Source: Omnitrophica WOR_2 bacterium RIFCSPHIGHO2_02_FULL_67_20
GTDB taxonomy: Bacteria > Omnitrophota > Gorgyraeia > Aquiviventales > Aquiviventaceae
Direction: 5' to 3'
DNA: 37,488 nt
NCBI GenBank assembly: GCA_001805695.1
Contig: MHGT01000032.1
Span: 1-37,488, forward strand
Positions 2-24,493 of the stretch are shown here, in pieces (position 1 is the first letter of the stretch; the number at the start of each line of letters is the position of its first letter). The position numbers and the translations under genes are program-made. The notes beneath the pieces were generated by a model that saw only the letters and a list, made by a program, of their open reading frames with translations, made no database searches and was not told where the DNA came from.

Positions 2-1252
2 CGGCGACAGGCCGAGGCGCGCCTGCTGAAAGAGCAGCGCCGCTACCAGCGCACACTGCAGCTTGCCTCGCGCGGCATGACCCAGGTGCGCAACGTCGAC
101 CGGCTCTCCAACCTCATCACGCGCCTCGTCAGCCGCACCGTGGGCATGACTCATGCCTCGCTCTTCCTCTGGGACGAGACGCATCAGAGCTATGTCCTGC
201 GCGCCAGCCACGGCCCCAAGCGGCTCTCGCTCCAGTCGCGCTACGCGCTGGAGGCCTCGCATCCGCTCATCCGGTGGCTCGTTGAGCACCGCCGGCCGCT
301 GACGGCGGACGACGCCGTCCAGCATCCGGACCGCACGCTGCGCAGCGAGCTGGAGGCGCTGGAGTCGATGCTGGTCATCCCCGGCCTGATGGAGCATCGG
401 CTCACCGGCTTCCTAGCACTTGGCCCGAAGCGCTCGGGTGCGTGGTACTCCTCCGACGACCTCCATGCCTTCTCCACCCTGGCCAACGAGGCCTCGGTCG
501 CCATCGAGAACGCCACCTCCTACGAGGAGCTGCTGAAGGTCAACGAGCAGCTCAAGGCCGCCTCCGAGCGGCTCCTGCGGCAGGAGCGGCTCGCCGCGGC
601 CGGCCAGTTCGCCGCCGGCATGGCGCACGAGATCAAGAACCCGCTCTCCGCCATCAAGACCTTCGCCCAGTACCTGCCGGAGAAGTACATGGATCCGGCC
701 TTCCGGGAGAAGTTCTTCCGCATCGTCCAGGAGGAAATCGACCGCATCAACACCATCATCCAGGAGCTCTCCGACTTCGCCAGGCCCGCCCCGCTGCAGC
801 TGAAGTCCGTCCGGCTCTCCGAGCTGCTGGACGACACCCTTTCGCTGCTCTCCAACCAGTGCCTGAAGCAGGGCATCGAGATTCGTAACTCCTCGAACGA
901 CAATGGGTTGGTGATTCACGCCGACCCCCAGCAGCTCAAGCAAGTCCTCCTTAACCTTCTCCTCAACGGCATGGAGGCCATGGAAGGGGGAGGGCGGCTG
1001 GAGGTCGCCACCCAACTCAAAGGAGATCAAGCGGTTCTGCGGGTCAGCGACACCGGAGCCGGCATCGCCCCGGAATACCTCAGCCAGGTATGGGACCCCT
1101 TCTTCACCACCAAGGAGCGGGGCATGGGGCTCGGGATGGCCATCGTCAAGGGGGTTGTGGAGCGGCATGGCGGCTCCATCCACCTCTCCAGTACCCTCGG
1201 CAAGGGCACTACGGTCGAAGTCTCCTTCCCCGTTCGGCCGCCTGCTTCGTGA
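2..1252 (+). CDS. Sensor histidine kinase (GAF + HisKA + HATPase_c), 5' end outside the window
   Basis: The frame is open from nt 2 (RRQAEARLLKEQRRYQRTLQLASRG precedes the ATG at 77). This stretch aligns with the juxtamembrane region of the paralogue at 9064. H-box AAGMAHEIKNPLSAI, N-box LLNLLLNGMEAM, G-boxes DTGAGI and GMGLGMAIV. Confidence 0.9.
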   Translation, partial: RRQAEARLLKEQRRYQRTLQLASRGMTQVRNVDRLSNLITRLVSRTVGMTHASLFLWDETHQSYVLRASHGPKRLSLQSRYALEASHPLIRWLVEHRRPLTADDAVQHPDRTLRSELEALESMLVIPGLMEHRLTGFLALGPKRSGAWYSSDDLHAFSTLANEASVAIENATSYEELLKVNEQLKAASERLLRQERLAAAGQFAAGMAHEIKNPLSAIKTFAQYLPEKYMDPAFREKFFRIVQEEIDRINTIIQELSDFARPAPLQLKSVRLSELLDDTLSLLSNQCLKQGIEIRNSSNDNGLVIHADPQQLKQVLLNLLLNGMEAMEGGGRLEVATQLKGDQAVLRVSDTGAGIAPEYLSQVWDPFFTTKERGMGLGMAIVKGVVERHGGSIHLSSTLGKGTTVEVSFPVRPPAS

Positions 1253-1398: not shown

Positions 1399-1638
1399 AT
1401 GGAATTGACCCCACAAGAGGCTGAAATCTTGACCGTTGAGGAGCTTCACGGCTACCTCAAGATCCCCAAGCCGACGCTCTACGCCCTGGCGCAGAACGGC
1501 CGCATCCCGGCCGCCAAGGTCGGCAAGCACTGGCGCTTCCGCCGCAGCGACATCGACGAGTGGCTCAAGGCCCAGCAGTGGAACCGCCCCCTCCAGCGCA
1601 GACAGCGAAAGCCGGCCATCCATGCCGCCAACCAGTAA
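1399..1638 (+). CDS. Small helix-turn-helix DNA-binding protein (excisionase-family / HTH_17-like)
   Basis: 79 aa. LTVEELHGYLKIPKPTLYALAQNGRIPAAKVGKHWRFRRSDIDEWL matches the excisionase-type HTH pattern. Its stop overlaps the start of the next gene. Confidence 0.7.
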   Translation: MELTPQEAEILTVEELHGYLKIPKPTLYALAQNGRIPAAKVGKHWRFRRSDIDEWLKAQQWNRPLQRRQRKPAIHAANQ

Positions 1639-2872
1639 CCGCGTCGCCATCACCGGCCTGGGCGTCATCTCCGCCATCGGAGCGGGGAAAGAGGCGTTCT
1701 GGGACTCGCTCAAGGCCGGCCGGTCCGGCATCAAACGGGTCAGCAAGTTCGACCCCACCCCGTACCCCACCCAGTTCGCCGCCCAGCTCAACGGCTTCGA
1801 CTTCAGCCCGTTCATCGACCCGAAATGGTCGCGCCGCATGGACCTCACCTCCCAGATGGCGGTGGCGGCCGCGAAGATGGCGGTCAAGGACGCCGCACTC
1901 GACCTCGACCAGGAGGACCGGGAGCGCATCGGGGTGGTGGTGGGGACCGCCATGGCGGGCCATGCCTTCATTCTCGAGCAGCACGACGTCTACAAGGAGA
2001 AGGGGCCGATGCGCATCAACCCCTTCACGGCGCTCACCGTGTTTCCCGATGCGCCGGCCAGCTTCATCTCCATCGAGCTGAGGCTTCACGGGCCGAGCTT
2101 CTCGCTGGCGACCGCCTGCTCCTCGGCGCTCGACGCGGTCGGCTACGCCTTCAACGCCATCCGCAAGAAGGAGCTGGACGTCATCCTCATGGGGGGTGCG
2201 GAGGCGACGGTGTTCCCCCAGGCCTTCTCCGCCTTCTGCATGCTGCGGGCGATGTCCCAGCGCAACGACGACCCGGAGCGCGCCTCGCGCCCCTTCGACA
2301 AGGAGCGCGACGGCTTCGTCCTGGGCGAGGGGGCGGGGATGCTCGTCCTCGAGGACCTCGAGCACGCCAGGAAGCGCGGCGCCCACATCTACGCCGAGAT
2401 CGTGGGCTTCGGCATGACCTGCGACGCCTACCACATGACCGCCCCCGAGCCCTCCGGCCGCCAGGCCGCGCGCGCGATCAATATTGCGCTCAAGGATGCC
2501 GGGATCAAGCCCGCCGACATCGACTACATCAACGCCCACGGCACCTCGACCCCGCTCAACGACAAGACCGAAACATTCATCATCAAGCAGGTCTTCGGCC
2601 GGCATGCGTACCACGTGCCGGTGTCGGCCACCAAGTCCATGATCGGCCACCTCATCGGGGCGGCAGGCGCCGTCGAGCTCATCGCCACCACCCTCGCTTT
2701 GGAGCACCAGGTCATTCCGCCCACCATCAACTACGAGATCCCCGACCCTGAGTGCGACCTCGACTACGTCCCCAACGTCGCGCGCAAGGCCACCATCGAT
2801 TTCGCGCTGAAGAACTCGTTCGGCTTCGGCGGCAAGAACTCGGCGTTGGTCGTGAAGAAATATGAAGCATAA
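1622..2872 (+). CDS. Beta-ketoacyl-ACP synthase II paralogue (FabF-like KAS)
   Basis: The ATG at 1622 gives MPPTSNRVAITGLGVISAIG. Cys-His-His triad contexts are present: ATACSSALDAV, NAHGTSTPLND, KSMIGHLIGAAG. 416 aa. The ORF-track start at 1436 is an upstream extension overlapping the HTH gene. Confidence 0.9.
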   Translation: MPPTSNRVAITGLGVISAIGAGKEAFWDSLKAGRSGIKRVSKFDPTPYPTQFAAQLNGFDFSPFIDPKWSRRMDLTSQMAVAAAKMAVKDAALDLDQEDRERIGVVVGTAMAGHAFILEQHDVYKEKGPMRINPFTALTVFPDAPASFISIELRLHGPSFSLATACSSALDAVGYAFNAIRKKELDVILMGGAEATVFPQAFSAFCMLRAMSQRNDDPERASRPFDKERDGFVLGEGAGMLVLEDLEHARKRGAHIYAEIVGFGMTCDAYHMTAPEPSGRQAARAINIALKDAGIKPADIDYINAHGTSTPLNDKTETFIIKQVFGRHAYHVPVSATKSMIGHLIGAAGAVELIATTLALEHQVIPPTINYEIPDPECDLDYVPNVARKATIDFALKNSFGFGGKNSALVVKKYEA

Positions 2873-2986: not shown

Positions 2987-3997
2987 GTGCCGGCCAAGTG
3001 CCCGCTTTTCCATAACCCGAAGATCCTCTGCCGCATCAAGCCGGAGAGCCAGCACCGGTGGGTGGGGACGGAGCGCACGTGGTACATCCGCAACTACTGC
3101 GAGGCGGACTACTACGTGGACTGCGAGGACTTCGAGGCCTACCTCGAGCAGCAGGCCATCGTGAAGGGCAAGATCCTCGTGGTGGACGACGAGACGGTCA
3201 TGCTCGAAACGCTCAGCAGCTTCTTCGGCAGCCGCGGCTACCAGCTCATGACGGCCGCCTCGGCCGAGGCGGCGCTGAAGCTCCTCTCCCAGGAGCAGCC
3301 GGCGTTGGCGCTCATCGACATCAAGCTGCCCGGCATGAACGGGCTGGAGCTGCTCAAGGTCATCAAGCGCGACTACCCGGCGGTGAAGCGATTTATCATC
3401 ACCGCCTACGACGAGGAGAACAAAAAAGCCGCCGAGGCGATCGGCATCGACGCCTTCTTCGCCAAGCCCATCGGCCTCGACGCGCTCAAGAAGAAGGTGA
3501 TCGAGGTCCTCGCCGACTTCGAGCGCCGGCTCGAGCAGCTCGCCAAGCGCGCTCCGGTCGAGGGCGTCCCGTCCGCGAAGCTGCTCTTCATCTCCGAGGT
3601 GCTCGCGCACGAGGAGGACCGGCTCACGCCGTACCTGCGCGCCTGCTTCACCGATGAGAGCCGCTGCGGCGGGCGCTACGAAGTCGAGTTCGCCCACGCC
3701 ATCAACGACGCCCAGCAGAAACTGATGTCGTTCAAGCCCGACATCGTCCTCATCAACTTCGACTCGCTCTACCAGATCCCCTGCGGCCAGATCGCCTCGC
3801 GCATCGTCGAGTCGCCCTATCGCCCCAAGGAGGTCATCGTCTACGGCCTCAACCTCGAGGCGGCGGACAAAGAAACCATCGAGCGCCTCGGCATCCAGTA
3901 CGTCGACCAACGCCGCTCGTTTGCAAAGTTGGTGACCACCGTAAGACAAACAGCCATGAGCTTAGATAGGTCAGCTTCGGGGTCTTCAAGGAGTTGA
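2987..3997 (+). CDS. Response regulator: Cys-rich N-terminal segment + REC + C-terminal pseudo-receiver-like domain, no DNA-binding output
   Basis: AGGAGG at 2976-2981, then GTG at 2987. REC: KILVVDDE...ALIDIKLPGMNG...FIITAY...FFAKP. The C-terminal half is REC-like, but DIVLINFDS has Asn where the phospho-Asp is expected. Confidence 0.8.
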   Translation: MPAKCPLFHNPKILCRIKPESQHRWVGTERTWYIRNYCEADYYVDCEDFEAYLEQQAIVKGKILVVDDETVMLETLSSFFGSRGYQLMTAASAEAALKLLSQEQPALALIDIKLPGMNGLELLKVIKRDYPAVKRFIITAYDEENKKAAEAIGIDAFFAKPIGLDALKKKVIEVLADFERRLEQLAKRAPVEGVPSAKLLFISEVLAHEEDRLTPYLRACFTDESRCGGRYEVEFAHAINDAQQKLMSFKPDIVLINFDSLYQIPCGQIASRIVESPYRPKEVIVYGLNLEAADKETIERLGIQYVDQRRSFAKLVTTVRQTAMSLDRSASGSSRS

Positions 3998-3999
3998 TA

Positions 4000-5289
4000 A
4001 TGGAGAGACGACGATTTCCTAGAGTTACAGCATGTCTGCCCGCTCGTTACTGGTTGTCGAGTCAATCTCCATCCGAAAGCCGCCCAGTCTTAATGGAGGA
4101 TATATCTGAGGGTGGTGCGCGACTCTCTACCACTGAACCTTTAATGATTGGACAGAAAATTCGGTTCGTGTTTGATGGAAATCAGTCCCGACAGAGCCTA
4201 TCAGAACTAAGCGGTATGGTCGCGTGGCAGGAAAACATCGTTGACTACTCAAATGGCGATTCAAGGGACACGGGAATAACTTTCGTCCCGAATGACCCAA
4301 TTACTAAGAACAGAATTAAGCAATGGTTGCTAAAAAGAGAAGTGGTCCCACGACCTCAACTCGATGAGGCTGAACCATCAACCCGCATCGAATCGGCGTA
4401 TGACAGTTCGACAGTTACCTTCAAAGTCTTAAGGGCTTTTGGGTGGGGTCCCTTGATTAATCTTGGTTATTTTCGGTTTCCCTCACCTCTTAGCGCGCTG
4501 AACCTGCTATACAATTTCGCCTTTTTGAAGACGGCCAACATGCTGCCAAGAGCACAAGTTCGATTGGCGAGAAAATCCTTCGAGTTCTTAGACATTCAAG
4601 CAGAAGACGACGTCTTAGACATAGCATGCGGAAGAGGGTACGGCTCCTTCATGATGGCCTGTTCATATCCCAAATCAAGGGTAACAGGGATTGATTTGTT
4701 AACTAACCACATCAGAGTCGCTTCCGCTCTCTATGGGAACGTTGGCAATCTAAGATTCAAATACGGTGATGCGCTAAGCCTGCCATTTGAGAGCGTCAGC
4801 TTTGACAAGGTGTTATGTCTAGAGGCGGCCTTTCACTTTGCAGATCGAGGGAGATTTCTCAAGGAAGCTTATAGAGTCTTGAAAGAAGATGGACGGTTAG
4901 TTGTGGTCGACTTTGCGTGGAAGACTGAGGAAGATCGACGGATCCTTGAAGATGAACCCACACGCTTCGTCCGACGTGAGTGGCAATGGGATGATTTTTT
5001 CTCTGTCGGCGAATACCTAAGGTCAGCGACGTCCGTTGGATTTGAAGTTGAAGGATGTCACAAGTGGGGCAGAAAAGTCACAGGTCCGATCCAGTGCATC
5101 TTTAATACCATTGGGGAAGCTGGGCGGTGGAGTTGGAGTCGTACTGTTATCCACCGCTCCAATCCACTGTTGTATAGCTTAACGGACAACGACTGGGCAA
5201 ACCTCCGTTACTCTGCCAGGGCACATAACTATGTTCGACGCCACGTTGAGTACCTAGTGCTTGTTCTAAAAAAGACGAGCGGTAAGTGA
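4000..5289 (+). CDS. PilZ domain fused to a class I SAM-dependent methyltransferase
   Basis: AAGGAG-6 nt-ATG at 4000. PilZ motifs: RRFPR (RxxxR) and DISEGG (DxSxxG). Methyltransferase motifs: VLDIACGRGYG, VTGIDL, DKVLCLEAAFHF, LKEDGRLVVVDF. Low-GC codon usage. Confidence 0.85.
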   Translation: MERRRFPRVTACLPARYWLSSQSPSESRPVLMEDISEGGARLSTTEPLMIGQKIRFVFDGNQSRQSLSELSGMVAWQENIVDYSNGDSRDTGITFVPNDPITKNRIKQWLLKREVVPRPQLDEAEPSTRIESAYDSSTVTFKVLRAFGWGPLINLGYFRFPSPLSALNLLYNFAFLKTANMLPRAQVRLARKSFEFLDIQAEDDVLDIACGRGYGSFMMACSYPKSRVTGIDLLTNHIRVASALYGNVGNLRFKYGDALSLPFESVSFDKVLCLEAAFHFADRGRFLKEAYRVLKEDGRLVVVDFAWKTEEDRRILEDEPTRFVRREWQWDDFFSVGEYLRSATSVGFEVEGCHKWGRKVTGPIQCIFNTIGEAGRWSWSRTVIHRSNPLLYSLTDNDWANLRYSARAHNYVRRHVEYLVLVLKKTSGK

Positions 5290-6452
5290 AAACTTCAGTG
5301 CCAAGACCCATAGAACGGACAGCACTCGTTACGGGAGGAACCGGCTTGCTGGGTCCCTGGCTAGTGCACGCTTTACTAAACCAAGGGTATCGAAAAATTT
5401 TTGTTTTGGCTAGGGCAAAGGGAAAAACTTCTGCGGAGAATCGGGTATCCGAGGCACTAAAATTTTGCAGAAACGGGAGAGAAATTAGAGGGGCAGACAA
5501 GACAGTTCAAGTGGTGTGCGGTGATATTTGTGAACCCAACCTAGGTTTGTCGCTCCAATTACGTAACGATCTCTTACGACAAATCACAGATATTTTTCAT
5601 ACCGCAGCACGAACCGACCTAAACGCTCCTCTCAACGCTCTTCGCCTCCCCAACGTCGTAGGAGCAGAGAATGTATTTAGACTAGCTTTGCATGGTAGTC
5701 AGCTAAACGGCCACACAATTCGCGTCCATCATGTTAGTAGTGTCACCGTTGCTGGCAATTTGCAGGGATGGTTTTCAGAAAGTCAATTTAGTTGCAGCCA
5801 GCGCTTTCACAATGCATATGAGCAGACCAAGTTCGAGGCGGAACAACTCGCCCTGGAATACAGAAACAAAGGTCTGAACGTTGCAATTTACAGACCAGGA
5901 ATTATCACGGGTGATTCTGTTCGCGGTACCACAAGTGGTTTCAAGGTGATTTACCAGCCTTTACGGTTCCTGGCGCATAATTTGTTTAATGAGTGGCCTG
6001 CGCGTGAGGATGCGCCGCTCTCCTTGGTGCCAGTTGATAAAGTTGCTGAGGCGCTTTGCCTTCTTTCTTGGGTTGAGTATCCATTGCGAGGGGCATGGCA
6101 TCTGGTCAATCCCGAAGATACTACTTTGGGAAAATTAATTGATGTAGGAATACAAGTGTTTGGGTGTCACAGGCCTGCCCTGATCCCGGCGGAGCATTTC
6201 AACAAATCACGATTCTCTCTTACTCAGTGGCGGCTAATTGGACCGTTTGTTCCGTACTTGAACTACCGCGTAAGATTTAGTTCAAGCTATACGAAAGAAG
6301 TATTAAACAAAGCAGGATTTAAATGGCCGAAGATGGATAGTGGCATGCTGGGAAAGTTGTATCGGTACTGCGGCAATTCAGGCTTCATTCGGCCACGCTC
6401 TATAGTTCCCGCTCGGAAGACGTTTTCCTCAATATTTGGAAGAACCAGATGA
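5286..6452 (+). CDS. Stand-alone thioester-reductase / fatty-acyl reductase-type extended SDR (NAD_binding_4-like)
   Basis: GTGA start/stop overlap with the upstream gene. ALVTGGTGLLG Rossmann motif, IFHTAA, VHHVSSVTV, YEQTKFEAE (YxxxK), AIYRPGIITGDS, SLVPVD. Low GC. Confidence 0.75.
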   Translation: MKTSVPRPIERTALVTGGTGLLGPWLVHALLNQGYRKIFVLARAKGKTSAENRVSEALKFCRNGREIRGADKTVQVVCGDICEPNLGLSLQLRNDLLRQITDIFHTAARTDLNAPLNALRLPNVVGAENVFRLALHGSQLNGHTIRVHHVSSVTVAGNLQGWFSESQFSCSQRFHNAYEQTKFEAEQLALEYRNKGLNVAIYRPGIITGDSVRGTTSGFKVIYQPLRFLAHNLFNEWPAREDAPLSLVPVDKVAEALCLLSWVEYPLRGAWHLVNPEDTTLGKLIDVGIQVFGCHRPALIPAEHFNKSRFSLTQWRLIGPFVPYLNYRVRFSSSYTKEVLNKAGFKWPKMDSGMLGKLYRYCGNSGFIRPRSIVPARKTFSSIFGRTR

Positions 6453-8584
6453 ACACCTTTGCTTTTTCCGGGCTCTTAACCAGTTTAGCGAGTCTCGGTA
6501 TTGGCGCGTGGGTCTATTTCAGCAACCGAACCAATTGGCTTAATCAGCTATGGAGCATGTTCTGCATCACGGTCGCTATCTGGGGACTTGGAGGGTTGCA
6601 AATTGGCCTAGCTTCAAATTCAGAAACGGCGTTGCTTTGGTGGCGCATAACCTATGTTGCCGTGATCCTCATACCCTCAATTTTTTATCACTTTGTCATC
6701 GTGTTTCTTGGAATTCGGCGTCCCATTACAGTCATCCTCGGATACTTACTAAGTTCCGGATTTTTAATCACAGATGCGACCCCCTTACTTATTGCGAACG
6801 TAGACAAAATTTTTAAGAATCTCTACTACGTCACTAAGCCAGTAGGGGTCGCCTATCCTGCGTTTGTCTTATTTTTTATCGGCATGGTTGTCCTAAGCCA
6901 TGTCGAGCTATGGCGGTACATGGGGAGGACAGCTGGTAATAAGCGTCGGCTCCAAGTTAGATGGTTTTTTTTAGCAGGTATTGTTGGATACATTGGGGGT
7001 ATTTCTTGTTTCCTTCCCGTCTTCGGGTTCAAGCTATATCCATATGGCAACTTCACAGTTCCTTTATTTCCTATTTTCCTGAGCTATGCCATCTTTCGTT
7101 ATCAACTTATGGACATCGAAGTTATTATCAAGCGGACCCTGGTGTTTGCGGGGCTTGTGGGATCCGTGGTGGCGGTGGTGGCGTCGATGGCGTTCGTCAC
7201 GCAGGATCTGCTGGCGCGATTCGTGGCGACGCCCCGGTGGCTCTCGAACGTGCTGGCGGCGATGGTCATCGCCGGGGTGTATGGCCCGCTGCGCAACTGG
7301 CTGGTGAACGTGACGGACCGGTTCCTCTTCCAGAAGAAGTACGACTACAAGGAGCTGCTCAAGAAGTTCACCGACGACGTGATGGTCATCGTGGACTTGA
7401 AGCAGCTGCTCCAGACGACGGTGACGACGCTCTCCGATACGGTGAAGCTGGAGAGCTGCAGCCTGCTGCTGCTGAACAAGGACACGCAGACGTATGAGCT
7501 GGCCGCCTCGCGCGGGACGAACGGCCGCCGGCTGGCGCTGGACGAGCAGGAGCCGTTCATCCGGTTCTTCCGCGAGACCCATGAGCCCATTGGCCTGGAT
7601 GGCTCGCTGGGGCAGGTGCGTTTCCCGGAGGCGGTGACGGGGCGCCTCAAGGAGCTCAACGCGCGGCTGTGCCTGCCGCTCCATCTCCATGAGGACCTCA
7701 TCGGCGTCCTGTGCCTGGGCAAGAAGAAGTCGGACGAGGAGTTCACGAAGGACGACTTCGACATCCTCCTCCCCCTGGCCCGCACGCTGGCGATCGCGGT
7801 GAGCAACGCCCAGCTCTTCGACGAGCTGGCCAAGACGCAGGCCGAGGCGGCGCAGAGGGAGAAGCTGGCCGTCATCGGCACGCTCTCCGCCGGCATCAAC
7901 CACGAGATCTGCAATCCCCTCGGCATCATCAAGGCGCAGTGCGAGGCGTTCCTGATGGACCTGGAAGACGGCATCCTCATCGGCAAGTCGCCGAGCGACC
8001 TGCTCAACCGGACCTCCTCCATCCTGCAGGTGGCGCTCAAGCAGATCGACCGCGCGACCGCCATCACCCAGAAGCTCTCCAACTTCGCCAAGCCCATCAA
8101 GGACCCCTCGATCCAGCCGGTGTCGGTCGAACAGGAGGTGGGGGAGGTGCTCCTGCTGGTCGGCCACGACCTCACGCTGGAAAAGATCGCCTTCGAGCAG
8201 GAGATCCCGCCGGATCTGCCGTCCATCACCGTGGACCGCCGCCAGTTCCAGGAGGTGCTCTTCAACCTCATCCGCAACGCGGCGCAGGCCATCACGCCGC
8301 CGGGGACGATCCGGGTGAGCGCGCGCGCGCACGAGGACGGCCGGGTCCGCATCGAGATTGAGGACAGCGGCAGCGGCATTCCCCCCGACAAGCTGGGCAA
8401 GATCTACGACCCCTTCTTCACGACGAAGGAGCCAGGCAAGGGCACCGGCCTTGGGCTCTTCATCGTCCGCCAAATTGTGGAACGCAATCGAGGGCGGATC
8501 GCGGTGGAGAGCGCGGTGGGGAAGGGGACGGTATTTTTTCTCGACTTTCCGGTGGCACGAGAGGTTCCCGCCAAGGCGGGGTGA
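6449..8584 (+). CDS. Multi-pass membrane sensor histidine kinase (7TM-type N-terminus + GAF + HisKA + HATPase_c)
   Basis: ATGA overlap with the upstream gene. About 9 hydrophobic helices, with a FRYQLMDIEV motif after helix 7. GAF-like KLESCSLLLLNKDTQTYELAASRG...LCLGKKKSDEEF. H-box LSAGINHEICNPLGI. NLIRNAAQAI, DSGSGIPPD, GTGLGLFIV. Confidence 0.9.
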   Translation: MNTFAFSGLLTSLASLGIGAWVYFSNRTNWLNQLWSMFCITVAIWGLGGLQIGLASNSETALLWWRITYVAVILIPSIFYHFVIVFLGIRRPITVILGYLLSSGFLITDATPLLIANVDKIFKNLYYVTKPVGVAYPAFVLFFIGMVVLSHVELWRYMGRTAGNKRRLQVRWFFLAGIVGYIGGISCFLPVFGFKLYPYGNFTVPLFPIFLSYAIFRYQLMDIEVIIKRTLVFAGLVGSVVAVVASMAFVTQDLLARFVATPRWLSNVLAAMVIAGVYGPLRNWLVNVTDRFLFQKKYDYKELLKKFTDDVMVIVDLKQLLQTTVTTLSDTVKLESCSLLLLNKDTQTYELAASRGTNGRRLALDEQEPFIRFFRETHEPIGLDGSLGQVRFPEAVTGRLKELNARLCLPLHLHEDLIGVLCLGKKKSDEEFTKDDFDILLPLARTLAIAVSNAQLFDELAKTQAEAAQREKLAVIGTLSAGINHEICNPLGIIKAQCEAFLMDLEDGILIGKSPSDLLNRTSSILQVALKQIDRATAITQKLSNFAKPIKDPSIQPVSVEQEVGEVLLLVGHDLTLEKIAFEQEIPPDLPSITVDRRQFQEVLFNLIRNAAQAITPPGTIRVSARAHEDGRVRIEIEDSGSGIPPDKLGKIYDPFFTTKEPGKGTGLGLFIVRQIVERNRGRIAVESAVGKGTVFFLDFPVAREVPAKAG

Positions 8585-8680: not shown

Positions 8681-9067
8681 ATGGATGCAGCAAGGCCAGT
8701 CTTGGTGGCGATTGACGACGAAGTCGAGTTCACCAAGGCGATCGAGTCGTTCTTCGGCGCGCGCGGCTACGACGTGCGCGTGGCGCTCACCGGTCCCTCG
8801 GGTCTCGCCCTGGTGGATGCGCACAAACCGCGGGTCGTGCTCGTGGACCTGAAGCTGCCCGGCATGGACGGGGACGAAGTCCTCCAGCGCATCCGGCGCG
8901 CGCATCCCCAGACGCGCGTCATCATCATCACCGCCTACAACGACGGCGGTGTGACGCGCGAGCGGCTGCTGCGCGCGGGCGCCTTCGCCCACTTCGACAA
9001 GCCGCTTTCCTCGCTGCGGGACCTGGCCGCGGCGGTCCAGCGCGCACTCGCAGCACCGGAGCCATGA
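8681..9067 (+). CDS. Single-domain response regulator (REC only)
   Basis: VLVAIDDE...VVLVDLKLPGMDG...VIIITAY...HFDKP. 128 aa. Confidence 0.9.
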   Translation: MDAARPVLVAIDDEVEFTKAIESFFGARGYDVRVALTGPSGLALVDAHKPRVVLVDLKLPGMDGDEVLQRIRRAHPQTRVIIITAYNDGGVTRERLLRAGAFAHFDKPLSSLRDLAAAVQRALAAPEP

Positions 9068-10626
9068 GCGCCATGTCCGCCACCCTCCTCGAGCGGATCG
9101 TCTTCAAGCGGCTGGACCCTGCCAAGGTCGCCCTCTTCGTCGCGCTCTACGGCGTCGTCCTCGCCGTCCCGACGCTCCTCTTCACCCTCGGCTCGGCCTG
9201 GCTGCGCGGCCATTTCCCGAGTGTCTGGTGGATGATCCCGCTCGCCTTCTTCGGCCTGCTCGCCCTGCTGGCCCCGCTGGCCTACTTCGCCCTCCTGCGC
9301 CGGATGGAGTGGGCGCTCATCCGGGACCAGCGACGCTACCACCACACGCTGATCGGCGCCTCGAGCGGGATGATCCGCATCAAGGAGATCCAGCGGCTCT
9401 GCCGGCTCATCACCCACACCGTCAACCGCACCGTCGGGCTGACCAACACGGCGCTCTTCCTCTACGAGCCGAAGGAGCAGCGCTACGTCCTGCAGGCGGT
9501 GCGGTACCAGTCGCACCTGCCGCCGGAGCTCTCGGTGGACCAGGCCGACCCGCTGGTGCGGCGGCTCGAGGCCAAGAAGGATTTGCTGGTGGTGGACGAG
9601 CTGCGCGAGGCATCGGAGGCGGAGCTGCGGCGCGGGGAGGGCCGGGACCGGACCGCCGAGCAGGTGTACGGCTGGATGCGCCGCGTCGAGGCGCGGCTCA
9701 TCGTGCCGAGCTTCTCGAACGAGCGGCTGCTGGGCTTCCTCGCGCTGGGCGAGAAGCGCAGCCGCGAACCCTTCACGACGGACGATTTGGCCATCTTCTC
9801 CGGACTCGCCAACCAGGCGGCCCTGGCGCTTGAGAACGCCATGTTCTTCGAGGAGCTGCGCGCGAACGAGGTGTTGATCATCCAGTCGGAGAAGCTTGCC
9901 AGCCTCGGCCAGCTGGCCTCCGGCATGGCGCACGAGATCCACAACCCGCTGACCATCATCTCCGGCGAGTCGCAGCTCTACCTGGAGCGCTTCCGGGGCC
10001 AGGACGCGCAGGTGGACAAGCTGCTCCTGAGCATCATCGAGGAGTGCAAGCGGGCGGCCGACATCACCCGCCGCATCCTGCGCTTCGCCAAGCCCGCGCC
10101 CCCGGACGTCAACGCGGTGGACCTGAAGGCGACGGTGGAGGAGAGCCTGACGCTGGCCGGCTACCAGGTGCGGCTGGAGCGGGTGCAGTGCGTGGTCAAC
10201 ATGCCGGACCAGCTCCCCAAGGTGCGCAGCAACCAGAACCAGCTCCAGGAGGTCCTGCTGAACCTCATCCTCAACGCCTGCCAGGCGATGGGGGAGAAGG
10301 GCGGGCGGCTCGCGCTCTCGGCCCACCCGAACGGCTCTTCCGTCGTCCTCAAGGTGGAGGACAACGGCCCCGGCATTCCGGCCACCGCCCTCCGGAAGGT
10401 GTTCGACCCCTTCTACACGACGAAGGAGACGGGGACCGGGCTGGGCCTTTTCGTGACCCAGCGCATCATCCAGTCGCACGGCGGCACGATCGAGCTGGAG
10501 TCCGTCGAGGGCAAAGGGACTTGCTTCACGGTCCGTCTGCCGGTCTGGGAGGAGGGTGCGGCCACCGTGGCCCAGCCGGCGGCGGGCTCGGCCGAGGCGC
10601 CGGAGCCAGGAGGGGGCCCCGGATGA
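9064..10626 (+). CDS. Membrane sensor histidine kinase (2-3 TM + GAF + HisKA + HATPase_c)
   Basis: ATGA overlap with the RR gene. H-box LASGMAHEIHNPLTI. NLILNACQAM, DNGPGIP, GTGLGLFVT. Its juxtamembrane and GAF region is paralogous to the kinase at 2-1252. Confidence 0.9.
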   Translation: MSAMSATLLERIVFKRLDPAKVALFVALYGVVLAVPTLLFTLGSAWLRGHFPSVWWMIPLAFFGLLALLAPLAYFALLRRMEWALIRDQRRYHHTLIGASSGMIRIKEIQRLCRLITHTVNRTVGLTNTALFLYEPKEQRYVLQAVRYQSHLPPELSVDQADPLVRRLEAKKDLLVVDELREASEAELRRGEGRDRTAEQVYGWMRRVEARLIVPSFSNERLLGFLALGEKRSREPFTTDDLAIFSGLANQAALALENAMFFEELRANEVLIIQSEKLASLGQLASGMAHEIHNPLTIISGESQLYLERFRGQDAQVDKLLLSIIEECKRAADITRRILRFAKPAPPDVNAVDLKATVEESLTLAGYQVRLERVQCVVNMPDQLPKVRSNQNQLQEVLLNLILNACQAMGEKGGRLALSAHPNGSSVVLKVEDNGPGIPATALRKVFDPFYTTKETGTGLGLFVTQRIIQSHGGTIELESVEGKGTCFTVRLPVWEEGAATVAQPAAGSAEAPEPGGGPG

Positions 10627-10727: not shown

Positions 10728-11822
10728 ATGGTAAAACTCCTCGTTGCTGACGACGAGCAGAAAATCTGCCGGCTGTTGGAGTCGTTTTTTGCCGAGCGGG
10801 GCTACCGCGTCCTGCTTGCGCATGACGGCCCCTCGGCCCTCTCCTGCATCCGTCAGGAGCGCCCCCACCTGGTGTTCCTCGACCTCCACATGCCCGGCCT
10901 CGACGGCCTGGACATCCTCAAGGAGACCCGGGCGTTCGACGAGACCATCAAGATCATCGTCATCACGGCGGTCGAAGATGCCGAGGTCATCGAGCAGGTC
11001 AAGCTGCTCGGGGCGGCCGACTACGTGATCAAGCCGTTTAGCCTGGAGTATCTGCAGGAGGAGGTGCTGGCGAAGGTCAGCACCTCGCTCTATGAGGACC
11101 TGCGCTCGGCCAACCAGGAGTTGAAGCGGTCGCTCGAGGAAATGCGCCAGGTGACGCGCGGCATCGTCGGGGCGTTTTCGCTCGTCATCTCGAAGATCGA
11201 CCCGCATTACACCCACGAGCACGTTTCCCGCAGCGTAGAGTACGCGAGCAAGATCATCGCCCGGCTGCGGCAGGAGGGGATGAGCTTCGACGGCATACCG
11301 GATGAGCTGCTCCTCGCGGGCATCCTCCTCCACGATGTCGGCAAGATCTTCACGCCCAAGGAGATCCTCTTCAAGCCCGGGCCGCTGTCCGACGAGGAGT
11401 GGCGGATCATGCGCCGCCATCCGGTCGACGGGGCCGAGATCCTGGAGCAGATCACCGGCCTGCAGGAGATGTCCAAGATCGTCCGCTACCACCAGGAGGC
11501 CTACAACGGCTCCGGCTATCCGGAGGGGCTTAAGGGCGAGGAGATCCCCATCGGGGCGCGCATCGCCACCGCGGTGGACGCCTTCGACGCGATGATCACC
11601 GACCGGCCCTACCGGAAGGGCATGCCCATCGAGAAGGCGATCGAGGAGCTCAGGCGCAACCGGGGCATCCAGTTCGACCCGCAGGTGGTGGACGTCATCG
11701 TCAGCCTCTCCGAGGAGGGCACCCTCAAGCCGGCTCACCTGCCCGACTCCAGCCACAGCATCGGCAGCAACGGGGCGGCGTCCGCCCGGCCGGACGGCAC
11801 GAACCACCACCCGCGCGCCTGA
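10728..11822 (+). CDS. Response regulator with HD-GYP output domain (RpfG-like c-di-GMP phosphodiesterase)
   Basis: REC: KLLVADDE...LVFLDLHMPGLDG...IVITA. HD-GYP: LLHDVGKI, RRHPVDG, YHQEAYNGSGYPEGL, DAFDAMITDRPYR. Confidence 0.9.
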   Translation: MVKLLVADDEQKICRLLESFFAERGYRVLLAHDGPSALSCIRQERPHLVFLDLHMPGLDGLDILKETRAFDETIKIIVITAVEDAEVIEQVKLLGAADYVIKPFSLEYLQEEVLAKVSTSLYEDLRSANQELKRSLEEMRQVTRGIVGAFSLVISKIDPHYTHEHVSRSVEYASKIIARLRQEGMSFDGIPDELLLAGILLHDVGKIFTPKEILFKPGPLSDEEWRIMRRHPVDGAEILEQITGLQEMSKIVRYHQEAYNGSGYPEGLKGEEIPIGARIATAVDAFDAMITDRPYRKGMPIEKAIEELRRNRGIQFDPQVVDVIVSLSEEGTLKPAHLPDSSHSIGSNGAASARPDGTNHHPRA

Positions 11823-11975: not shown

Positions 11976-12722
11976 ATGGCATCATCGCTGACAGGCCAGG
12001 TCGCCATCGTGACCGGGGGGGCTAGGGGCATCGGCCGCGAGATCGCGCTCGTCCTGGCCCGGGACGGCGTGGACGTCGCCCTCTTCGACGTGAACCCCCA
12101 GCAGCTCGAGCAGACCGTCGCGGAACTGCGCGCGATGGGCCGCCGCGCCGAGGGGCTGACCGTGGACGTCACCGACGGAAAACAGGTCGACGAGGGCATG
12201 GCAAAAGTGCTTGACAAGCTAGGGAGAATCGATATACTCATCAACAACGCGGGCATCACCAAGGACGGGTTGCTCGTCCGCATGGATGATGCCCAGTGGG
12301 ATCGGGTGCTCACCGTCAACCTGACGGGCACCTTTCTGTGCACCCGCGCAGCGGCCAAGCACATGCTGAAGCAGCGGCGCGGGCGGATCGTCAGCATCGC
12401 GTCGATCGTTGGGATCATTGGAAATCCAGGGCAGGCGAACTACGCCGCATCGAAGGCGGGCATCATCGGGCTGACCAAGGCGGTCGCCAAGGAGCTCGCC
12501 AGCCGCGGGATCACCTGCAACGCCGTGGCACCCGGCTTCATCAAGACCGAGATGACCGAAGCGCTGCCTGAGCCGGCGAAGCAGCGGCTCATGGAGGCGA
12601 TCCCGATGGGCACGCTCGGCGAGCCGAGCGATGTGGCGCAGGCCGTGCGATTTCTCGTCAGCGACGCCGCGCGGTACGTCACCGGCCACGTGCTGGTGGT
12701 GGACGGCGGCCTCGCGATGTAA
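11976..12722 (+). CDS. fabG: 3-oxoacyl-ACP reductase
   Basis: VAIVTGGARGIG, NNAGIT, SIASIVG, YAASKAG (YxxxK). Positioned directly upstream of acpP-fabF. Confidence 0.92.
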   Translation: MASSLTGQVAIVTGGARGIGREIALVLARDGVDVALFDVNPQQLEQTVAELRAMGRRAEGLTVDVTDGKQVDEGMAKVLDKLGRIDILINNAGITKDGLLVRMDDAQWDRVLTVNLTGTFLCTRAAAKHMLKQRRGRIVSIASIVGIIGNPGQANYAASKAGIIGLTKAVAKELASRGITCNAVAPGFIKTEMTEALPEPAKQRLMEAIPMGTLGEPSDVAQAVRFLVSDAARYVTGHVLVVDGGLAM

Positions 12723-12746
12723 GGGCGGAAACCAGGGGAGGGATGG

Positions 12747-12995
12747 ATGGCGGAGGCTGTGGCGGATCGGGTTCGGGCGATCATTGCTGAGCAGCTTGGC
12801 GTCAAGCTGGAAGAAGTGACCGATGCGGCCTCGTTCATCGAAGACCTGGGTGCGGACTCGCTCGACACCGTCGAGCTGGTCATGGCGCTCGAGGAGGAGT
12901 TCGGGATCGAGATTCCCGATGAGGATGCCGAGAAGATGAGCTCGGTCGGCGACGCCATCAAATACATCGAGTCGAAGACTGCCGGCGCGAAATAG
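12747..12995 (+). CDS. acpP: Acyl carrier protein
   Basis: 82 aa. [21 protein letters not shown] carries the phosphopantetheine Ser motif. Confidence 0.95.
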
Positions 12996-13023
12996 CCTTC
13001 CGCACAAGTTGAGTGTGGCAACA

Positions 13024-13058
13024 GGACGTCCCGCTTTGGCGGGACGTTCGTGTTTGTG
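13024..13058 (+). terminator. Hairpin plus T-rich tail after acpP (terminator/attenuator candidate)
   Basis: acgtcccgc-tttg-gcgggacgt gives a 9-bp stem, followed by tcgtgtttgtg. Confidence 0.55.
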
Positions 13059-13108
13059 AAGATGATAAAGCAGATTGAAGAGCTGATTACACAGATAGGA
13101 CGTCATAG

Positions 13109-14347
13109 ATGAGGCGGGTTGTGGTGACAGGATTGGGTGCCGTGACGCCGGTGGGGAACGACGTCCCCGCCATGTGGGCGGCGCTCCTGGCCGGCAAAAG
13201 CGGTGTCGGCCCGATTCAGAGCTTCGACGCCTCCGCCTTCGAGTCCCGCATCGCCGCTGAGGTCAAGGGCTTCGACCCCGCGTCGTACATCAGCCCGAAG
13301 GAGATCAGGCGCACCGAGCGGTTCACGCAGCTGGCCATCGCGGCGGCAACGCAGGCGGTCCGGCAATCCGGCGTCAGCATCGAGCGCGAGGACCCGTTCC
13401 GCTGCGGCGTCATCATCGGCTCCGGGATGGGGAGCATGCACCTCATCGAGGAGCAGCACAGCGTCTACCTGGCCAAGGGGCCGAAGAAGCTCACCCCCTT
13501 CATGATCCCGATGCTCATCTGCAACATGGCGCCGGGCCACGTCGCCATGAACCTCGGTTTCAAGGGCCCCAACTTCTGCACGACGACCGCCTGCGCCTCC
13601 GGCGCCCACGGAGTGGGCGAGGCGTTCCGCATCATCCAGCGGGGGGCGGCCGACGTGATGCTCGGCGGCGGCACGGAGAGCTGTGTGAGCCCGATGGCGG
13701 TGGGCGGCTTCTGCGCGCTCATGGCGCTCTCCCGCCGCAACGGCGAGCCCGCCACAGCCAGCCGTCCCTTCGATCGGGAGCGCGACGGCTTCGTCATCGG
13801 CGAGGGCGCCGGCGTCCTGGTCCTGGAAGAGCTGGAGCACGCGAAGAAGCGCGGGGCCGCGATCCTCGCCGAGATGGCGGGCTACGGGCTCACCGCGGAC
13901 GCCTACCATATGACCGCACCCGACCCGGAGGGAACCGGGGCCGCCAAGGCGATGGCGCTGGCGCTGGAAGATGCCCGGATGCGGCCCGAGGACGTCACCT
14001 ACCTCAACGCCCACGGCACCTCGACCGAGCTCAACGACAAGATTGAAACGCTGGCGATCAAGAAGACCTTCGGCCCGGCCGCCAAGACGGTGGCGGTTTC
14101 TTCCACGAAATCCATGACCGGCCACCTGATCGGCGCCGCGGGCGGTGTGGAGGCGGTCATCTCGGTCCTCGCCATCACCGACGGCGTCATGCCCCCCACC
14201 ATCAACTACGAGCACCCGGACCCCGAGTGCGACCTCGACTACGTCCCCAATCACGCCCGGCGCGCCGCGGTCAAGGCGGTGCTCTCGAACTCGCTGGGGT
14301 TTGGGGGACATAACGCGACGGTGATTTTTAGGAAGTTTCACGGCTGA
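13109..14347 (+). CDS. fabF: Beta-ketoacyl-ACP synthase II
   Basis: RRVVVTGLGAVTPVG, TTTACASGAHGV, NAHGTSTELND, KSMTGHLIGAAG. Canonical fabG-acpP-fabF order. Confidence 0.95.
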   Translation: MRRVVVTGLGAVTPVGNDVPAMWAALLAGKSGVGPIQSFDASAFESRIAAEVKGFDPASYISPKEIRRTERFTQLAIAAATQAVRQSGVSIEREDPFRCGVIIGSGMGSMHLIEEQHSVYLAKGPKKLTPFMIPMLICNMAPGHVAMNLGFKGPNFCTTTACASGAHGVGEAFRIIQRGAADVMLGGGTESCVSPMAVGGFCALMALSRRNGEPATASRPFDRERDGFVIGEGAGVLVLEELEHAKKRGAAILAEMAGYGLTADAYHMTAPDPEGTGAAKAMALALEDARMRPEDVTYLNAHGTSTELNDKIETLAIKKTFGPAAKTVAVSSTKSMTGHLIGAAGGVEAVISVLAITDGVMPPTINYEHPDPECDLDYVPNHARRAAVKAVLSNSLGFGGHNATVIFRKFHG

Positions 14348-23896: not shown

Positions 23897-24491
23897 AGAA
23901 AAGCTGCTGAAGCTCATCCGGGGCAAACCCGCCCGGTCCGCCACCGAGGCCGCGGCGTTCCCGCGCCCCGGCCAGCTCATGACCGCCTCCAGCCAGGCGG
24001 CGAAGGCCCGGGTCTTCCGCTCACCCGCGCGCGCGCCGGGATGGCCGACGATCGCCATGTGCGTGTTGGGGGCGTTCCTGGTCGTCGAAGTCATCGTGCT
24101 TATCGTCCAGGTGCTCCGCCCGCTGCCACCGGTGCTGCTGCCGGTCGAAGCGGCGGCTTCGCTGCCGGTAGCACTCCCGTCCCCTCACGAGCTGCCGTCG
24201 CTCAGCGCCAGCGTGCCCAGGACCGTCTTCGCGCCGAGCGCCGCGGCACCGGCGACAGGCGCCGCAGCCGCCCCGCTCAGCACATCGACCAAGCTCCTCG
24301 CCGCCCGCCTGACGCTCATGGGGATCGTCGCAGGCGACCCGCCGCAGGCGATCATCGAGGACTCCGAGACGAAGAAGACGTTTTTCGTGACCGCCGGCCA
24401 GATGGTGATCGAGGACGCCGTTGTCGAGCAGGTGCTGGACAGCCGCGTCATCCTCACGGTGGCGGGCGAAAAAATCGAGCTCTCGTTGTAA
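23862..24491 (+). CDS. GspC-like / PilP-like bitopic secretin-interacting protein
   Basis: One TM (IAMCVLGAFLVVEVIVLIVQVL), a Pro/Ala-rich linker, and a C-terminal HR-type beta domain (LTLMGIVAGDPPQAIIEDSETKKTFFVTAGQMV...VILTVAGEKIELSL). Confidence 0.6.
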   Translation: MSPDGFAKPPPEEKLLKLIRGKPARSATEAAAFPRPGQLMTASSQAAKARVFRSPARAPGWPTIAMCVLGAFLVVEVIVLIVQVLRPLPPVLLPVEAAASLPVALPSPHELPSLSASVPRTVFAPSAAAPATGAAAAPLSTSTKLLAARLTLMGIVAGDPPQAIIEDSETKKTFFVTAGQMVIEDAVVEQVLDSRVILTVAGEKIELSL

Positions 24492-24493
24492 GC

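Follow-up and report, generated by a model that had tools for sequence, protein, structure and literature searches.

Alleles of comQXP, one of the closest described counterparts of the locus treated here, are distributed discordantly with strain phylogeny. The variable part of comQXP comprises the signal-modifying enzyme, the signal and the N-terminal multi-transmembrane domain of ComP, with conservation of ComA and of the cytoplasmic part of ComP (PMC4008528); in agr, a hypervariable region spans agrB, agrD and agrC, and its alleles constitute producer/receptor specificity groups (PMC10482373). A hypervariable segment that combines producer and sensor, with breakpoints inside the kinase gene, is thus already known from Firmicutes. 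Here we analyze a stretch of 37,488 nucleotides (hereafter the window; positions 1 to 37,488 of contig MHGT01000032.1, assembly GCA_001805695.1) from Omnitrophica WOR_2 bacterium RIFCSPHIGHO2_02_FULL_67_20, phylum Omnitrophota, in which a 3.2-kb block poor in guanine and cytosine (GC) covers the end of a response regulator (RR) gene, genes for a PilZ-methyltransferase and a reductase, and the first 228 codons of a histidine kinase gene, HK2 (6449-8584). We conclude that this block, at 3920-7130, is probably one allele of a multi-allelic replacement cassette within a conserved Omnitrophota locus for signaling and fatty acid synthesis.

As in agr, the variable segment ends inside genes, and it is the enzyme genes and the membrane sensor of the kinase that vary, while the cytoplasmic part of the kinase and the RR are conserved. 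Unlike agr, the enzymes are predicted to tailor acyl chains or lipids, the sensor is a seven-transmembrane (7TM) HisKA_7TM head on a core with a GAF domain, there are at least 38 head types as opposed to four, and the step in composition (from 0.46 to 0.93 in GC content at third codon positions, GC3) is far stronger. The contrast with comQXP is similar: the substrate of the isoprenyl transferase ComQ is a peptide, the enzymes here belong to fatty-acyl families, and the phylum, sensor fold and scale of allelism also differ. The polymorphic region of comQXP may also be low in GC. As no homologue of AgrB/AgrD or ComQ/ComX was found in the window's cassette or in the alternative cassettes examined, the locus is not a member of either family, and the resemblance is one of mechanism. 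By sequence comparison, it does share with pherotype loci a hypervariable segment of putative producer genes and sensor, the alleles of which are distributed discordantly with the conserved parts.

Acyl-derived signals read by membrane kinases encoded nearby have been described in Ralstonia, where PhcB, an S-adenosylmethionine (SAM) methyltransferase, converts fatty-acyl precursors to a hydrophobic signal for PhcS (PMC8578825), and in Vibrio and Legionella, where CqsA, an enzyme of the alpha-oxoamine-synthase type, is paired with the membrane-embedded histidine kinase CqsS (PMC3285556). The present cassettes likewise hold predicted methyltransferases, thioester reductases and an alpha-oxoamine synthase near a membrane kinase; the window's methyltransferase, however, matches the generic class I group only, and cassette swapping is not described for those systems. 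Replacement flexible genomic islands, for their part, show high divergence at their borders (PMC10872708). Like such islands for O-antigen or glycocalyx, the locus carries gene sets of similar function but without homology at the same position in close relatives, with recombination in conserved flanks and without mobile-element genes. Unlike them, it has one border inside a signaling gene, at a domain hinge, so that a protein module is included, and it concerns lipid or acyl chemistry and a two-component system instead of glycosyltransferases. On gene content, breakpoints and border divergence it would count as a replacement island, with the comparison made between relatives whose flanks are about 91% identical. 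In the Rhs/CDI polymorphic toxins, AT-richer modules that can be exchanged, and that travel with a cognate partner gene, are attached in frame to a conserved, GC-richer core by way of a short conserved motif. Those systems consist of secreted toxins with variable C-terminal tips and immunity genes; in the present locus, it is the N-terminal sensor of a kinase that varies, and its partner genes encode enzymes. We know of no ligand for the HisKA_7TM domain, and a literature search found no published description of this locus or of head swapping in Omnitrophota kinases. The domain is merely listed as a sensor domain in one report (PMC5847659). The novelty lies in the host phylum, in chemistry of the lipid type, in a 7TM head, in how many alleles there are, and in a composition cliff that is maintained inside one open reading frame (ORF).

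Results

A low-GC block with both edges inside genes

GC content is 0.469 within 3920-7130 and 0.677 in the remainder of the window. Subwindows of 500 nt outside the block (n = 133) have a mean GC of 0.677 (sd 0.039) and a minimum of 0.570, compared with a mean of 0.475 and a maximum of 0.498 inside it (z-score -5.2). A first-pass annotation, made from the letters of the sequence, had placed the drop at about 3920 and the recovery at about 7135 by eye; a two-change-point likelihood scan returned 3920 and 7130 as the maximum-likelihood edges. The GC3 profile that it proposed as a check is not flat, but steps at both edges, from about 0.93 to 0.46 across the block border, and the switch of third codon positions from G/C to A/T extends over the cassette genes (PilZ-methyltransferase 0.48, reductase 0.44) in contrast to the RR gene (0.91) and the neighboring genes at large (0.85-0.96). 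Both edges fall within ORFs, at the places first read off by eye. In the RR gene, GC3 is 0.90 over the 30 codons preceding 3920 and 0.46 over the final 26 codons, while in HK2 it is 0.43 over codons 199-228 and 0.83 over codons 229-258, the switch lying immediately 3' of FRYQLMDIEVIIK (codon 228 ends at 7132). For the whole HK2 head and core, the values are 0.49 and 0.93, respectively.

The three ORFs of the block are tightly coupled, as the first reading had it, through a Shine-Dalgarno-like hexamer 6 nt before the ATG at 4000 and overlaps of GTGA (5286-5289) and ATGA (6449-6452). They take up the block wholly and so leave no space for an integrase or transposase gene, neither of which is present; repeats around the block are of 14-17 nt, at chance level, and no tRNA gene lies in the window. 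These ORF, repeat and tRNA checks agree with the earlier impression that mobility genes, terminal repeats and a tRNA are missing, and the block is not an integrative genomic island or mobile element, as it lacks an integrase, a transposase, direct repeats and a tRNA site. The same kinase and both junctions are present on contigs of three separate ENA assemblies (L001, L002, L003) at 99.8-99.9% identity, the three and the window differing by 8-27 single-nucleotide polymorphisms. Host genes outside the block combine GC3 of 0.85-0.96 with a second-position GC content (GC2) of merely 0.38-0.46, a contrast which suggests a strong, possibly recent GC drive on synonymous sites in this clade. In its composition, the proteome resembles that of an organism of moderate GC, although G/C occupies nearly all synonymous sites.

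Homology ends at the composition edges

HK2 was split at codon 228/229, and its head and core were compared separately with retrieved homologues. The kinase is a mosaic: the homologue P0004 is 25% identical to it in the head and 95% in the core, P0006 is 36% identical across just 75 residues of the head and 93% in the core, and most others are at 25-33% and 65-80%, respectively. Two homologues have similar values in both parts (P0001, head 75% and core 80%; P0080, 51% and 50%). At the DNA level (blastn), homology of the window to five related loci (L005-L009) begins at 7084 or 7085 each time, and its left-hand limit is 3928 against L007 and 3951 against L006, while a sixth locus, L004, is colinear with the window over the entire block at 73.7% identity. 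The ends of homology coincide with the change points, and the compositional edges are therefore homology edges.

The comparison with close relatives, which the first-pass annotation had recommended, found unrelated cassettes beside near-identical cores. In L007, L008 and L090 (P0004-type, core 95% identical in amino acids), the cassette comprises a histidine kinase, beta-ketoacyl synthase (KAS), ketoreductase (KR), acyl carrier protein (ACP), dehydratase (DH), a second KAS, two FAD oxidases and a shikimate dehydrogenase-like gene. In L009 (P0006, core 93%), it is a single fusion protein of a methyltransferase and an alpha-oxoamine synthase (family F15). An identity of the latter as a CqsA-like signal synthase is not supported, since serine palmitoyltransferase (SPT; 3e-82) is closer than CqsA (3e-39). 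Together with that of the window, these are three unrelated cassettes beside cores 93-95% identical. Other gene sets again, also of low GC, stand 5' of the kinase in L005 and L006, and the block stops at the same codon. L004 (metagenome-assembled genome GCA_016180575.1, NCBI) matches the window in gene order and in its low-GC block, its kinase being 78% and its PilZ-methyltransferase 63% identical. In the window and in L004-L006, GC3 switches right after R(Y/H)QL(M/L)(D/E)IEV..K, where the core starts with RTLVFAGLVGSVVAVV.

On the left side, RR proteins are conserved up to ...RRSFAKLVTTVKQTALRHGLK. The tail of the window's RR retains the conserved residues FAKLVTTVRQTA, but in A/T-ending codons, about 15 conserved residues being recoded. 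It thus derives from an orthologous RR of lower GC, which is what homologous recombination with a donor of the same locus architecture would produce. In L004, despite its cassette of the same type, the codon switch in the RR gene lies about 10 codons later, so that the left breakpoints of the two differ.

Against near-allelic relatives, DNA identity is 0.73 at the right junction and reaches 0.96-0.97 at 600-1100 nt inside the core. Identity in mid-core (7700-8300) is 96-97% to L007, L090 and L009, and at 8703-9763 it is 86% to L009; recombination between lineages may have homogenized the core.

Head and core are decoupled throughout Omnitrophota

A scan of reference-genome contigs with the core alignment picked up generic kinase motifs, with 72 of 80 loci being unrelated kinases and eight usable (L010-L017). 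The survey set derives from a scan of metagenomes with a single core protein, which yielded 80 orthologous loci with core identities of 48-95%; 75 loci with a complete head were used for the comparison of GC3. Head GC3 is more than 0.05 below core GC3 in 68 of these 75, with a median difference of 0.20 and a maximum of 0.51. Where the core GC3 of the host is at least 0.8, heads fall at 0.38-0.57 in 18 loci and at 0.81-0.86 in three (L114, L115, L116), and one head type is fully GC-rich in L114 and L116 but low-GC in L107. The asymmetry extends beyond the kinase, as in 50 loci out of 60 the 2 kb preceding the head have a lower GC content than the 2 kb that follow the kinase gene.

The 67 non-redundant loci hold 38 clusters of head types (at least 45% identity). 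Pairwise identities of heads and cores are uncorrelated (r = 0.115), median head identity being about 27% in each bin of core identity; of 232 pairs whose cores are at least 75% identical, no more than 20 have a head type in common, and a single head cluster covers cores from 50% to 95% identical to that of the window. Head type is, on the other hand, linked to enzyme content. Pairs with the same head share an adjacent gene family in 32 of 58 cases, against a background of 9.6% (permutation p <= 1e-4), and in 10 of 26 when their cores are less than 70% identical. Within the window's head cluster, identities to the window of reductase, head and core are, respectively, 64, 75 and 80% in L004, 52, 54 and 78% in L093, 48, 48 and 79% in L094, 56, 50 and 71% in L173, and 41, 44 and 47% in L171. 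On these alignments, reductase identity follows that of the head, not that of the kinase core.

The region between RR and head holds predicted enzymes of many families across the survey. These include KAS, KR, a FabA/ApeI-type dehydratase, ACP, an FAD amine-oxidase-type enzyme, a shikimate-dehydrogenase/OCD-like enzyme and several methyltransferases; nitroreductase, thioester reductase, AMP-ligase, a PilZ-thioesterase and a LuxD-like acyltransferase-methyltransferase; and a membrane methyltransferase of the ICMT/PEMT type, a GMC oxidoreductase and an SPT-like fusion. Heads are intact, in-frame 7TM domains of 225-242 codons in nearly all loci, with a conserved terminal motif, and the close homologues of the window's cassette proteins and head all lie at this locus in other Omnitrophota. 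PilZ was found fused to two of the cassette enzymes, namely the methyltransferase of the window and a 4HBT-type thioesterase (L100 1356-2201; family F16 in L117, L121 and L163); such recurrent fusions hint at gating of variable chemistry by c-di-GMP.

The junction lies at a hinge of HK2

HK2 is a HisKA_7TM sensor histidine kinase. Its head matches HisKA_7TM (PF16927) over residues 9-223 with 42.4 bits (gathering cut-off 28.6), its HATPase_c domain scores 92.9 bits and HisKA 25.3 bits, slightly under the cut-off of 26.9, and the H-box GINHEICNPLG is invariant throughout the family alignment. An AlphaFold model (mean pLDDT 83) has seven helices in the head (3-25, 30-54, 58-87, 92-109, 136-160, 164-192 and 199-218), and residues 1-218 are at a pLDDT of about 90 or more. 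Confidence falls to about 50 at residues 219-229, before the core helices 227-258 and 263-292. As this drop separates two confident helical modules, the crossover sits at a hinge.

Both sides of the junction are conserved, each in its own manner. The final 16 residues of every head type are conserved as protein (YAIVRHQL.DIEVVIK), whereas the first approximately 45 nt of the core (7133-7180) are conserved as DNA between species (L004-L009), including a TTT codon for Phe where GC3 is about 0.95. In L004 and L005, the conserved core start holds GCTGGTGG, the Chi octamer of E. coli, right at the recombination junction; this is probably a by-product of Gly and Val codons.

Gene callers often begin the kinase past the composition switch and drop the 7TM head (P0005, P0012, P0023, P0035, P0054). 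On the window's own contig, the kinase is called as 491 amino acids (P0005) with the head omitted, and in L005 and L006 the open frame continues upstream and codes for a complete head. As calls are truncated at the switch, sensor heads are under-reported in public annotations.

A second kinase with the same mosaicism

The window begins inside the gene of a paralogous kinase, HK1, the upstream part of which is available on L001 (window position 1 corresponds to L001 3497). A second low-GC patch (L001 2533-3419) takes in the intergenic region that follows secA, together with the first approximately 260 codons of HK1, which encode a 7TM head, and GC3 passes from about 0.45 in the patch to about 0.9. 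Head and core are again decoupled among homologues, at 39% and 84% identity for P0243 and 28% and 76% for P0254. HK1 shows the same mosaicism as HK2. Gene conversion between the two low-GC heads was considered and ruled out: the kinases are 29% identical as proteins and their sole DNA match, at a shared motif, is of 91 nt at 69%, so neither head was copied from the other.

Genes of the cassette and its flanks

Coordinates of the cassette and its conserved flanks are collected in Table 1. The PilZ domain of the methyltransferase scores 45.1 bits (cut-off 22.5) and carries RxxxR as RRFPR, in the starting sequence MERRRFPRV, and DxSxxG as DISEGG, in EDISEGGARL. RxxxR and (D/N)xSxxG are the c-di-GMP-binding motifs of PilZ. 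On profile and motifs, it is a predicted c-di-GMP receptor domain. The nearest solved relatives of the methyltransferase are generic class I small-molecule methyltransferases. The reductase scores 180.1 bits against NAD_binding_4 and has TGGTGLLG (Rossmann TGxxGxxG) and YEQTK (catalytic YxxxK) in its translation; its nearest solved relatives are MxaA and the terminal reductase domains of polyketide synthases, nonribosomal peptide synthetases and CAR. Its start codon is uncertain, and some gene calls (e.g., L002) begin about 60 nt later.

Orthologues of the RR (family F4) sit 5' of the variable region in many loci. The Cys-rich N-terminal extension is of about 60 amino acids, and the C-terminal domain, which has no Pfam match, resembles by eye a degenerate second receiver (REC) domain. 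The upstream KAS (GC3 0.90) is a likely supplier of acyl chains. Downstream of HK2, the signaling genes as far as 11822 have GC3 of 0.85-0.96 and keep their synteny in L004, L006 and L173, and the FabG, ACP and KAS genes beyond them have GC3 of 0.87-0.92.

Type II secretion/type IV pilus genes come after the second KAS. The secretin of this cluster (24041-26398, +) has a C-terminal TonB_C domain at residues 696-784, an unusual fusion. Further on, the SMC gene (27297-32561, +, 1754 amino acids) contains an intein with a LAGLIDADG homing endonuclease just past the P-loop (Intein_splicing, residues 45-598), the DNA of which (about 27430-29090) has a GC content of 0.62-0.66, compared with 0.72-0.75 elsewhere in smc.

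Table 1. Features of the cassette and its flanks, in window coordinates
Feature	Position	Strand	Basis
Paralogous kinase HK1, C-terminal part	77..1252	+	HK1 gene = L001 2640-4748
Conserved beta-ketoacyl synthase 5' of RR	1622..2872	+	ketoacyl-synt 1.8e-55; L001 5118-6368
Response regulator (Cys-rich N-terminal extension, REC, ~165-aa C-terminal domain)	2987..3997	+	Pfam Response_reg 4e-25
Left crossover zone, last 26 RR codons, low-GC	3920..3997	+	Change point, GC3, homology ends
Shine-Dalgarno-like AAGGAG, 6 nt before ATG	3988..3993	+	Sequence
Cassette gene 1, PilZ + class I SAM-dependent methyltransferase fusion	4000..5289	+	PilZ 1.3e-11, Methyltransf_11 2.3e-20
Cassette gene 2, stand-alone thioester reductase, NAD_binding_4 family	5286..6452	+	Pfam NAD_binding_4 6e-53
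HK2 variable 7TM sensor head, codons 1-228, right part of cassette	6449..7132	+	HisKA_7TM 9.2e-11
Right crossover zone, hinge encoding YAIFRYQLMDIEVIIK followed by RTLVFAGLVGSVVAVV	7084..7180	+	Homology start, GC3 switch, pLDDT drop
HK2 conserved core (two transmembrane helices, GAF, DHp, HATPase_c)	7133..8584	+	GAF_3 5.8e-11, HATPase_c 2.2e-26
Single-domain REC	8681-9067	+	Pfam
Kinase HK3	9064-10626	+	Pfam
REC-HD phosphohydrolase	10728-11822	+	Pfam
FabG-like ketoreductase, acyl carrier protein, second ketoacyl synthase	11976..14347	+	Pfam, L001/L002 gene calls

Discussion

The exchangeable unit at this locus would comprise genes for predicted acyl- or lipid-tailoring enzymes together with the first approximately 228 codons of the downstream kinase, that is, its seven-helix head, and alleles would be swapped by double crossover. 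The right crossover would always fall in the short conserved stretch ...DIEV(I/V)(I/V)K followed by RTLVFAGLVGSVVAVV (here DIEVIIK-RTLVFAG), at the hinge of head and core, and the left crossover in the conserved 3' end of the RR gene or, for longer alleles, in conserved biosynthesis genes. Each swap would yield an in-frame mosaic kinase, with a new sensor but unchanged downstream signaling. Of this model, the comparisons above demonstrate the mosaic kinase, the two breakpoints, the alternative alleles, the head-core discordance and the link of head type to the neighboring enzyme. Composition along the long cassettes (L005, L006, L007, L011, L097, L102, L118) has the form expected with a fixed right and a varying left crossover, GC3 ramping down from RR to head and ending in a cliff at the junction. 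In L097, for example, it is.75 in KAS,.74 in KR,.68 in DH,.62 in the second KAS,.49 in the FAD oxidase,.48 in the methyltransferase and.52 in the head, but.82 in the core.

With respect to the low GC itself, we favor turnover from a shared pool of cassettes circulating among Omnitrophota, many of them low-GC, which would outpace the drive to the high GC3 of the host, with a contribution from escape from that drive, as GC-enriching recombination may be reduced within a non-homologous segment. The two processes are not exclusive, and are inseparable on present data. The uniformly low-GC Omnitrophota L170 and L171 (GC 0.41-0.42) carry heads like that of the window (44-51% identical); in L171 the head stands beside an ACP, a reductase and an AMP ligase, and the short L170 contig shows a cut upstream ORF only. 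The GC3 ramp of the long cassettes, the head type that is GC-rich in L114 and L116 but not in L107, and the differing left breakpoints of the window and L004 also speak for turnover. At fourfold sites, the excess identity of the window to L004 amounts to 0.05-0.26 over cassette segments and to 0.15-0.35 over the flanking genes, values near saturation in each case. In both genomes, GC at these sites (GC4) nevertheless remains at 0.39-0.51 within the cassette, as opposed to 0.94-1.00 in its flanks. Low GC is therefore a maintained state, and not that of a fresh import awaiting amelioration.

Several observations weigh against the exchange of matched cassettes as set out here. A donor of the window's cassette was not found, the nearest candidate being L004, at 63-75% protein identity and likewise a high-GC genome; the closest homologues of the PilZ-methyltransferase in the donor search are 66% and 63% identical. 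The flanks of the closest alternative alleles are 91% identical overall, 96-97% in mid-core and 86% further downstream, and strain-level polymorphism is at most a possibility. In 26 of the 58 pairs with the same head, the adjacent gene is a different one. A PDB fold search with the modeled head returned generic seven-helix bundles only, none at E <= 0.001 (best E 3.9e-3, TM-scores 0.46 or less), and coupling of producer and sensor is not separable from plain physical linkage by sequence data. Repeated import explains saturated fourfold sites with GC4 of 0.39-0.51 no better than does a composition that is maintained locally. Finally, head GC3 in high-GC hosts is bimodal, with 18 loci in one mode, three in the other and none between; simple gradual amelioration, which predicts intermediates, is thereby disfavored.

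These last points lend some weight to an account in which composition is maintained in place, the cassettes being old residents that sit at an AT-rich mutational equilibrium where alleles are non-homologous and GC-biased conversion or recombination-linked selection is therefore absent. Saturation and GC4 agree in the window and in L004, the composition edge is the homology edge, a smaller offset of head below core remains even in low-GC genomes, and the contrast of GC2 and GC3 in host genes points to a strong, recent drive on synonymous sites, all as this account would have it. We regard it as a possible but not the leading explanation. The discordance of head and core, and the presence of one head type across cores only 50% identical, prove exchange, so that the cassettes are not simply old residents; the RR tail looks like a copy of a low-GC orthologue, given the low-GC codons of its conserved residues; and the left breakpoints of the window and L004 differ. 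In any case, maintenance in place addresses only the cause of the low GC, and is compatible with cassette swapping.

As to function, we infer that the head may be a specific receptor for the lipid-like product of the co-transferred enzymes, or for the membrane state that they bring about, exchange as a unit keeping producer and sensor matched, in the manner of agr or comQXP pherotypes. In the window, the flanking KAS, FabG, ACP and KAS genes would make ACP-bound acyl chains, which the thioester reductase would release reductively; the PilZ-methyltransferase might then methylate the product under the control of c-di-GMP, and the 7TM head would read it and pass the signal on, by way of the constant core (GAF-DHp-CA), to regulators that are conserved. 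Tentatively, the cassettes might even amount to a phylum-wide set of lipid signal/receptor pairs, or lipid pherotypes, which serve as a self/non-self or quorum-sensing code and are gated by PilZ and c-di-GMP in some alleles.

A contrary view of function, which we consider rather doubtful, is that the variable genes diversify an envelope lipid or surface molecule under pressure from phages or predators, and that the head varies through its proximity to a recombination anchor or serves as a general monitor of the membrane. The content of the cassettes (KAS, KR, DH, ACP, FAD oxidases, an SPT-like synthase, an ICMT/PEMT methyltransferase and reductases) would suit such a role, as would the same-head pairs with differing neighbors, and functions that modify the envelope, with recombination in the flanks, are typical of replacement islands (PMC10872708). 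Heads, however, remain intact and in frame, constant in length and with their terminal motif, which argues for selection on the heads themselves, and head type predicts the adjacent enzyme even between distant cores. Moreover, HK1 swaps its head without any enzyme genes, so that the diversity of heads does not simply follow from turnover of the enzymes.

The first-pass annotation had envisaged a foreign block, of RR tail, PilZ-methyltransferase, reductase and kinase head, that replaced the resident sequence by homologous recombination and left a chimeric kinase and a chimeric regulator tail. The replacement unit with breakpoints inside both signaling genes holds, as does the chimerism, given the discordance of head and core and a recoded RR tail that belongs to the cassette. 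Its foreign and one-off character does not. The sharp in-frame steps at both ends, the recoded tail and the lack of this cassette in the closest core relatives (L007, L009) would all fit a single recent import from an unrelated low-GC organism, not yet ameliorated, but we consider such an event very improbable and already refuted for the most part: every close homologue is an Omnitrophota gene at the same locus, and L004 has the same cassette type and right edge, with a cassette as diverged at fourfold sites as its flanks. The same step recurs in the large majority of orthologous loci, with many different cassettes, and in HK1, and the supposed single insert is instead one allele in a lineage-wide system of at least 38 head types, nearly all of lower GC than their cores.

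A bias of protein type had been raised in the same annotation as a way in which transfer could be mimicked; under such a bias, or under one of expression, membrane or weakly expressed genes would use A/T-ending codons, and the second low-GC patch does likewise lie over a 7TM head, in HK1. Controls already refute this explanation, leaving it very improbable, since the soluble methyltransferase and reductase are equally low in GC3, other membrane segments are at 0.91 (T2SS-F) to 0.96 (HK3), the heads of L114 and L116 are at 0.81-0.86, and the switch occurs at one codon inside one ORF. Lastly, although abrupt steps in metagenomic data might suggest a contig joined from a low-GC and a high-GC organism, an assembly chimera is excluded for practical purposes by identical junctions in three independent assemblies, by intact reading frames and domain continuity, and by analogous junctions at the same codon in dozens of loci (NCBI, JGI, ENA, Logan).

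Conclusions

Omnitrophota are uncultivated, and their signaling is essentially unknown. The locus described here constitutes a natural experiment, in which parts of the same operon, and even of the same ORF, differ in GC3 (about 0.45 and 0.95) at saturated synonymous sites, a contrast which bears on whether recombination-linked processes drive high GC3. The natural in-frame splice point DIEVIIK-RTLVFAG offers a design rule for chimeric sensors, and thereby a route to the ligands of HisKA_7TM domains, while the pairing of head types with particular lipid-tailoring enzymes supplies concrete candidate pairs of ligand and receptor. If lipid pherotypes do exist in this phylum, they would be analogous to the peptide pherotypes of Firmicutes, but with another chemistry, another sensor fold and far more alleles.

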